Shown piece by piece: positions 23 through 701 of a stretch of DNA of 7,751 bases. Source of the stretch: a virus. Taxonomy: Duplodnaviria; Heunggongvirae; Uroviricota; Caudoviricetes. A program made the position numbers and the translations under genes. Position 1 is the stretch's first letter, and every line of letters begins with the position of its first letter. The DNA lies in the IMG/VR virus record IMGVR_UViG_2698536571_000012; one strand, 5' to 3'. Below the pieces are notes generated by a model that saw nothing but the letters and a program-made list of their open reading frames with translations, made no database searches and had not been told where the DNA came from.

Positions 23-268
23 TCAAAATCGGTGGAGCTGCATGACAAAGTCATCGGGCATTATCTGAACATAAAACACTATCAATAAGTTGGAGTCATT
101 ACCCAGCTTCCAAGCCTTATTACATTTAATCTGAGCATCGAGAATATCATTTCTGATAGCTGGAGCGTAACCGGATACATCGCTAATATTCATTAACTCT
201 TTGCACGATAGCATAGGCGCGTTATTGCGTTCAGTGGTCACGTTACCTGCATTCTTCTTACTGGTCAC
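23..268 (-). CDS. Hypothetical protein, 3' segment of a frame-disrupted gene downstream of the tape measure gene
   Basis: Track ORF with GTG start at 268 and TGA stop at 23-25. Hand translation shows the same frame stays open with no stop up to 571 (182 codons) but has no ATG/GTG/TTG before 268. An open frame this long in AT-rich DNA is unlikely by chance, so the coding region probably extends upstream (see finding on 23-701). Confidence 0.5.
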
Positions 269-548
269 ACCACCGTCATTTGTGGTAGCCGTTTTGCCAG
301 TGGCTGCTGAAATATCAGTTTGACCTACGATTGCTTTAAAGTTAATTTCCTGAAAAGTTAGCTGGATACGAAGACCGTTAGAGATAGTAACATCTTTAGA
401 GGCTTTAAAGTTGGTAATAATGGAATCGTCAATTTTAATTCCATCTTTACAGATAACAGAAATAATCTGCTTCTGGTCACGCCAGTTTTCCAGAGTGTCA
501 ATGAAGTTTTCTACTAATTGACCCTGACGAGTTAATAATAAGCTTCCT

Positions 549-701
549 TCATAATTGCATGTTCTGTGTAGTCACCTGCATAGGGCTATCAAATTCCATG
601 TTTTCAGTTGCTGATAAGGTTAAGAAGGCATCTACATTGTCTCTTAAGTGGAAATAGATGCCATCTTTGCCACTGTAACGAAGCTGATTAGTGTAAATCA
701 T
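549..701 (-). CDS. Hypothetical protein, 50 aa; probable 5' segment of the frame-disrupted gene downstream of the tape measure gene
   Basis: ATG at 701-699 preceded by AAGGAG (revcomp of 707-712) at 5-nt spacing; TGA stop at 551-549. Below the track's length cut-off. Translation [50 protein letters not shown]. The +1 frame continues open into the 23-571 frame. Confidence 0.5.

Follow-up and report, generated by a model that had tools for sequence, protein, structure and literature searches.

The gene that follows the tape measure gene in a viral DNA stretch of 7,751 nucleotides (IMG/VR record IMGVR_UViG_2698536571_000012, from here on called the window) is split between two reading frames, which raises the question whether a sequencing error, a recoding event or genuine gene decay lies behind the frame change. 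On the minus strand, an ORF of 50 codons starts with the ATG at 701, behind the ribosome binding site AAGGAG at 713–708, and ends with the TGA at 551–549. The +1 frame, bounded upstream by the TGA at 574–572, is open from 571 down to 26 with its stop at 25–23, which corresponds to 182 codons, and its earliest ATG, GTG or TTG is the GTG at 268, leaving ~101 codons without a start before it. An initial inspection of the letters alone (the sequence-only reading) had given the coordinates of both frames and rated the ribosome binding site as excellent, and our translation agrees with it for both frames. The longest stop-free run in 5000 shuffled versions of the segment had a mean of 61 and a maximum of 154 codons; since 182 codons were never reached, the start-less frame represents real coding sequence. 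It had, however, been taken as part of the gene over its whole length, and this does not hold for its 3' part: the codons from 103 down to 26, the final 26 of the 182, are the end of an IS1 read antisense and lie outside the gene. A long start-less open frame can thus extend into IS sequence. An Rfam search of the window gave no match, and a promoter and terminator scan of positions 1–1000 found none.

Intact homologues of the gene are single ORFs of 262–265 aa in E. coli and in Felixounaviruses. In E. coli TUM1881 the homologue is an intact ORF of 789 nt (262 aa) annotated as 'phage baseplate protein', and in Felixounavirus HK3 the gene right after the tape measure gene is an intact ORF of 798 nt (265 aa). 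The intact homologue matches the Pfam family Dit_like (PF21821) with residues 30–146 (73.3 bits, E 2.5e-20, profile positions 2–118) as well as phrog_3721 (E 1.7e-130), and the intact E. coli protein matches the PDB entry 9ndy_A, 'Tube initiator protein (gp018)', with an E of 3.5e-114. In phage Bas63 the tube initiator gp18 is a hexamer similar to the tube protein, adapts the C3 hub to the C6 tube/tail and spans the baseplate with a C-terminal extension of ~100 residues (PMC12609058). The E. coli homologue is ~99% identical to the tube initiator (TI) protein of HK3 over residues 6–170 and shows 92–93% nucleotide identity to many Felixounaviruses, whereas its C-terminal extension (~residues 185–250) is divergent from that of HK3. 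In the window, in HK3 and in phage NBEco004 the TI gene directly follows the tape measure gene, but the Felixounavirus gene is located in a phage and the window-type gene in a chromosomal element of ~11 kb. Moreover, a complete translatable TI ORF is absent from the window as a result of a deletion, a frameshift, an IS1 and an IS21-family insertion: in contrast to the intact gp18 of Bas63 and its Felixounavirus counterparts, the window gene lacks residues 50–74 and is cut by IS1. Rather than a functional member of the tube-initiator family, the window holds a pseudogene, already present in public annotations as partial or hypothetical 'phage baseplate protein'. No functional product of the gene is expected as judged from these lesions, while the 50-aa stub may be expressed.

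The nature of the primary lesion became clear from the alignment with the intact homologues. Residues 1–49 of TI were placed by tblastn on window positions 701–555 (96% identity) and residues 75–224 on 553–104 (96.7% identity). According to translation and alignments the 5' fragment (549–701, minus strand) is made up of the ancestral codons 1–49, followed by TTA as junction codon and by the TGA to which the deletion gave rise, and the 3' remnant in the +1 frame (104–553, minus strand) corresponds to codons 75–224 of an ancestral gene of 262 codons. The window is short of exactly 74 bp between 555 and 554, that is TCAGGGCAAAC...GTAGTTGG of the homologues is absent between A555 and T554 (junction at 554–555, minus strand). 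Against the 262-aa E. coli gene and the 265-aa Felixounavirus gene this is a single clean gap between ATGCAA and TTATGAAGG, with the alignment flanks ...ACAGAACATGCAA and TTATGAAGGAAGC... and an absent segment of TCAGGGCAAAC...GTCGTTGTAGTTGG. Also in a megablast search with window positions 1–1000 against complete E. coli genomes and in a blastn search against phage records, the gene was matched in two pieces with a span in the record that exceeds the query by 74 bp. The absent bases are codons 50–73 and 2 nt of codon 74, by which 25 residues (50–74) inside the tube-like, Dit_like domain are removed. As 74 equals 3 × 24 + 2, the downstream part is displaced to the +1 frame, and the junction reads CAA/TTA TGA with the TGA one codon past it; the TGA at 551–549 is thus a by-product of the deletion junction. 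We infer from sequence comparison that the polarity is a deletion in the window copy and not an insertion elsewhere, because this is more parsimonious and the absent segment encodes part of a conserved domain. A microhomology-mediated deletion was considered and rejected, since just 1 nt is common to both break points; this single T also makes the placement of the junction ambiguous by 1 nt.

With the junction between 555 and 554, the shift point indeed lies within 549–571, where the two frames overlap and where the sequence-only reading had placed it. Its preference for an indel or pseudogenisation of a tail gene over recoding was right in kind, the gene being a tube-initiator (Dit_like) gene broken by the deletion and by IS insertions, but the small or homopolymer indel it had in mind was not, as the lesion comprises 74 bp. 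Likewise, the proposed fusion of ~225 aa does not correspond to any single intact protein in the alignments, the intact homologues having 262–265 aa.

A programmed +1 frameshift at CAA UUA UGA A that joins both frames into a functional tail protein would explain the in-frame UGA at the overlap of two open frames, and the site has a superficial likeness to prfB. Read directly, however, the site (ACA GAA CAU GCA AUU AUG A) shows neither a CUU U motif nor an SD-like element within 549–575, in line with the earlier view that it is not a classical prfB-type slippery site. None of the homologues is two-framed, all of them being single ORFs with 74 extra bases at this position, and the UGA itself is the product of the deletion junction. 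Furthermore, a fused product would be without 25 residues of the Dit_like domain: the score of the conceptual fusion against this family drops from 73.3 to 34.8 bits and covers only the second half of the profile (65–118), and the 3' end of the gene is lost to IS1 and the IS21-family element. We consider recoding at this site to be extremely improbable. The locus resembles the known cases, namely prfB +1 and the G/GT –1 frameshift of tail chaperones, in having overlapping frames and an in-frame stop near the tape measure gene, but its two-frame layout lies downstream of the tape measure gene whereas that of the chaperone lies upstream, and contrary to programmed frameshifts the layout is not conserved in homologues and the stop was made by a deletion junction. 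What looks like a +1 recoding site beside the tape measure gene is therefore a clean negative.

The two frames could also be two separate genes, one for a protein of 50 aa and a downstream one with its own non-canonical start, and gene callers do call the 50-aa ORF in many assemblies. Yet 101 codons of the downstream frame pass before a start codon appears, and both pieces are colinear with one ORF in every intact relative. Homologues organised as two genes with an independent downstream start, which would have spoken against a split gene, were not what we found, and we give this explanation hardly any credence.

To see how the junction is distributed we compared it among genomes. A junction of 27 nt across the deletion was found in all 16 Shigella sonnei loci/assemblies examined, eight of which had been retrieved via the tape measure protein (TMP) and thus independently of the deletion, and 2281 blocks of assemblies, with S. 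sonnei named by their sources, contain the stub of 50 aa in exactly this form. The gene itself is carried by 234–295 of 5426 complete E. coli genomes (~4–5%), and the copies listed retain the 74 bp; a 40-nt junction probe had no match in these 5426 genomes. Presence in 16/16 S. sonnei loci together with absence from the complete E. coli genomes identifies a fixed, genuine pseudogene. An exact search with the 27-nt junction in one genome per species (GTDB species representatives) gave no match either, but nothing can be learned from this negative, as S. sonnei lacks a representative of its own in that set. A scan for the TI protein in one genome per species revealed only one locus, a divergent one in S. 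flexneri.

These data also bear on a sequencing or assembly error, in which a small homopolymer indel within 549–571 would split an intact gene artificially, one of the options of the sequence-only reading. The frame change itself fits such an error but nothing further does. The difference to the homologues amounts to 74 bp and not to 1–2 bp, a junction shared without change by all 16 independent assemblies of S. sonnei contradicts it, as does the stub in 2281 blocks, and the gene also bears two IS insertions, so that we discard this option as practically without probability.

Concerning these insertions, similarity to the homologues reaches no further than window position 103, and the 103 bases beyond it recur within E. 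coli genomes, with a median of 10 hits in each. They represent the terminal part of an IS1 (1–103, plus strand) with the terminal inverted repeat GGTAATGACTCC... starting at 103 and the 3' end of insB, positions 2–88 of the plus strand encoding the C-terminus of InsB (stop at 86–88). Adjacent to it, positions 104–112 form one copy of a 9-bp target-site duplication, which reads TGGAAGCTG on the minus strand and equals the codons for W222, K223 and L224; the IS1 interrupts the pseudogene after codon 224. Alignment of S. sonnei loci with and without the insertion revealed TGGAAGCTG on both flanks of a complete IS1 in locus L005, and the full IS1 copy in loci L005–L010 encodes InsA and InsB with the Pfam domains DDE_Tnp_IS1, Zn_ribbon_InsA and HTH_Tnp_IS1. 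The insertion thus has the terminal inverted repeat, InsA/InsB and 9-bp target duplication of an IS1. The IS21-family element (istA/istB) lies outside the window, 3' of the gene, where it follows ...AAGTACTCAGTG and replaces the last six codons (L003 8683–8708, L005 9460–9485). Its junction is present in 16/16 S. sonnei loci and that of IS1 in 11/16. As the latter is polymorphic whereas the deletion and the IS21-family insertion are fixed, these frequencies make it likely that deletion and IS21-family insertion came first and IS1 later.

The S. flexneri locus mentioned above (strain SFBU1023, L020 8428–10498) holds a divergent copy of the gene that was broken independently by an IS2 with a 5-bp duplication (GTGAA). 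Only 3–5 nt separate this IS2 from the site at which the S. sonnei deletion has its right end, and the proximity may reflect an insertion/deletion hotspot or a coincidence.

Taken together, we regard it as very nearly certain that the region is a pseudogene of the tube initiator (Dit_like, homologue of Bas63 gp18) resulting from a 74-bp deletion in S. sonnei with subsequent IS hits and without recoding. In this course of events an internal deletion in the S. sonnei lineage would have taken out residues 50–74 of the tube-like domain and thereby would have caused the +1 shift and the TGA one codon past the junction. The dead gene would then have been struck twice, by the IS21-family element (last 6 codons, fixed) and by IS1 (after codon 224, polymorphic).

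Shigella genomes are known for gene decay, with pseudogenes and expansion of IS1, IS2 and IS21-family elements. The locus fits this picture, having IS1, IS2 and an IS21-family element in its neighbourhood, a split recombinase and lesions that are fixed or polymorphic within one clone, but it differs from IS-driven decay in that the initial lesion is a plain 74-bp deletion and not an IS insertion. The split gene is ordinary gene decay, one more pseudogene in the IS-ridden S. sonnei genome.

The tape measure gene upstream is intact (858–3038, minus strand, 726 aa; Pfam TMP_3 E 2e-21, PHROG 4036 E 4e-93), and 5607 blocks of assemblies contain an identical protein. Overall it shares only ~30% identity with its counterpart in Felixounavirus HK3, but its N-terminal ~45 aa and its C-terminal 12 aa (DMLLSSSYPEEE) are near-identical to the Felixounavirus TMP; in the Bas63 structure a C-terminal fragment of TMP contacts the baseplate hub. 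TMP stop and TI start are separated by a spacer of 156 nt (702–857, minus strand) that contains the ribosome binding site AAGGAG at 713–708, and the window thus has a spacer and a separate strong ribosome binding site where in HK3 both genes abut at the same base. The 68-aa ORF before TMP has no similarity to the Felixounavirus TMP chaperone. For the TMPs of the variant elements described below, the best phage matches show 28–37% identity, mostly in Ounavirinae records, and there is no close relative; a recent exchange with phages can therefore be recognised for TI alone.

The setting of the pseudogene is not the complete tail module of a prophage. It is an element of ~11 kb with only two tail genes, a degraded representative of a compact type that integrates by means of a serine recombinase and is not a prophage. 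Window positions 104–7751 make up most of it, and an intact copy (L019 5303–16431, ~11.1 kb) splits yecE in E. coli ECONIH2. The order in ECONIH2 is a non-coding arm of 1.1 kb, Dam, a replication-initiator-like HTH protein, four small uncharacterised ORFs, an uncharacterised protein of 250 aa, a 67-aa ORF, TMP, TI and a convergent large serine recombinase with the domains Resolvase, Recombinase and Zn_ribbon_recom. Further copies are located at yciI-tonB in E. coli OkiPb01716 and beside wrbA in S. sonnei, so that at least three chromosomal sites are used (yecE, yciI-tonB, wrbA); in S. sonnei the recombinase is likewise split, by an IS2. The replication-initiator-like protein of 320–336 aa matches replication initiators in PHROG, and among the proteins of the element TMP and TI are the only ones with a counterpart in a complete Felixounavirus genome or with homology to virion proteins. 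The element thus combines an integrase and its own replication functions with the lack of most virion genes, as is characteristic of satellites.

Eight IMG/VR loci (L021–L028) keep the order of the uncharacterised 250-aa protein, 67-aa ORF, TMP, TI and recombinase. The recombinase is 93–95% identical to that of ECONIH2 in seven of them and the eighth locus ends at TI, whereas TMP (39–90% identity to ECONIH2) and TI (61–99%) are hypervariable. Hypervariable TMP and TI within a conserved backbone suggest diversifying pressure on the tail module, as far as can be judged from these comparisons.

Ties to phages were also found in non-coding DNA. Short stretches of the left arm in ECONIH2 match DNA from 253 phage records, where it lies in unannotated and mostly intergenic regions; by name, nearly all of these phages are Ounavirinae. 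The record of Felixounavirus NBEco004 has an exact direct terminal repeat of 628 bp, and four segments of the ECONIH2 arm match this phage over 25–64 nt with 86–100% identity. The first (L019 5320–5383, 64 nt, 89% identity) and the second (L019 6086–6110, 25 nt, 100% identity) correspond to DNA inside the 628-bp repeat and the third (L019 6208–6242; L011 2490–2524 in S. sonnei; 35 nt) to DNA just before it. In reverse orientation, these three segments have the same linear order as in the phage. The fourth (L019 6279–6341; L011 2561–2623 in S. sonnei; 63 nt) matches a divergent intergenic, promoter-like region; it is located just upstream of Dam, and its phage counterpart is also conserved in phage Moogle. 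The variants in OkiPb01716 and S. sonnei retain two of the four, namely segments 3 and 4 but not 1 and 2. From their sequence and position these segments may represent packaging or regulatory mimicry. The G+C content of the window is 39.1%, and that of Felix O1 is reported at 39% (PMC3185647).

From the ~99% identity in the tube-like domain of TI, the termini of TMP, the G+C content, the non-coding segments and the hypervariable TMP/TI, the element family in Escherichia, Shigella and Salmonella could tentatively be read as a satellite of virulent Felix O1-like phages, or as an element specific to them that interferes with tail assembly, with the S. sonnei copy as an inactivated relic, a possibility we take seriously without calling it probable. 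PADLOC identified no known defence protein in the element and only its orphan methyltransferase model matched, for Dam. The literature, as far as covered, holds no description of such an element or of a link between satellites and Felix O1-like phages; this coverage is incomplete and no proof of novelty, but the ~11-kb family is apparently undescribed.

The PLE of Vibrio cholerae is a satellite of ~18 kb that depends on the virulent myophage ICP1. Our element, a candidate satellite, is similar to it as a small chromosomal element with a large serine recombinase, its own replication initiator and sequence ties to a strictly virulent myophage, but it differs in its size of ~11 kb and in carrying genes for a tape measure and a tube initiator. 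If the tentative satellite reading is true, the element would be the coliphage counterpart of the PLE/ICP1 system, and an element that acts as a satellite or interferes with phages would bear on phage therapy and on the biology of host range in Ounavirinae. The element family, with intact relatives tied to strictly virulent Felix O1-like phages, may matter more than the split gene itself.

The left half of the S. sonnei element (window 4127–7362) differs from the ECONIH2 copy: the replication-initiator-like proteins share only 59% identity, and the small ORFs h141 and h107 of ECONIH2 are replaced by other small ORFs in S. sonnei (4554–5442). Between this half and TMP, an ORF of 236–252 aa (3368–4126) carries the NCBI name 'transposase'. 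It gave no match in Pfam, PHROG, NCBIfam and PADLOC and no tblastn match in 50,697 phage records, and its AlphaFold model, of low confidence (pLDDT 66, pTM 0.44), consists mostly of long helices; the annotation as transposase looks unsupported. Close homologues of the 236-aa protein occur in Salmonella, E. albertii and E. marmotae, and among the matches listed all are at least 87% identical.
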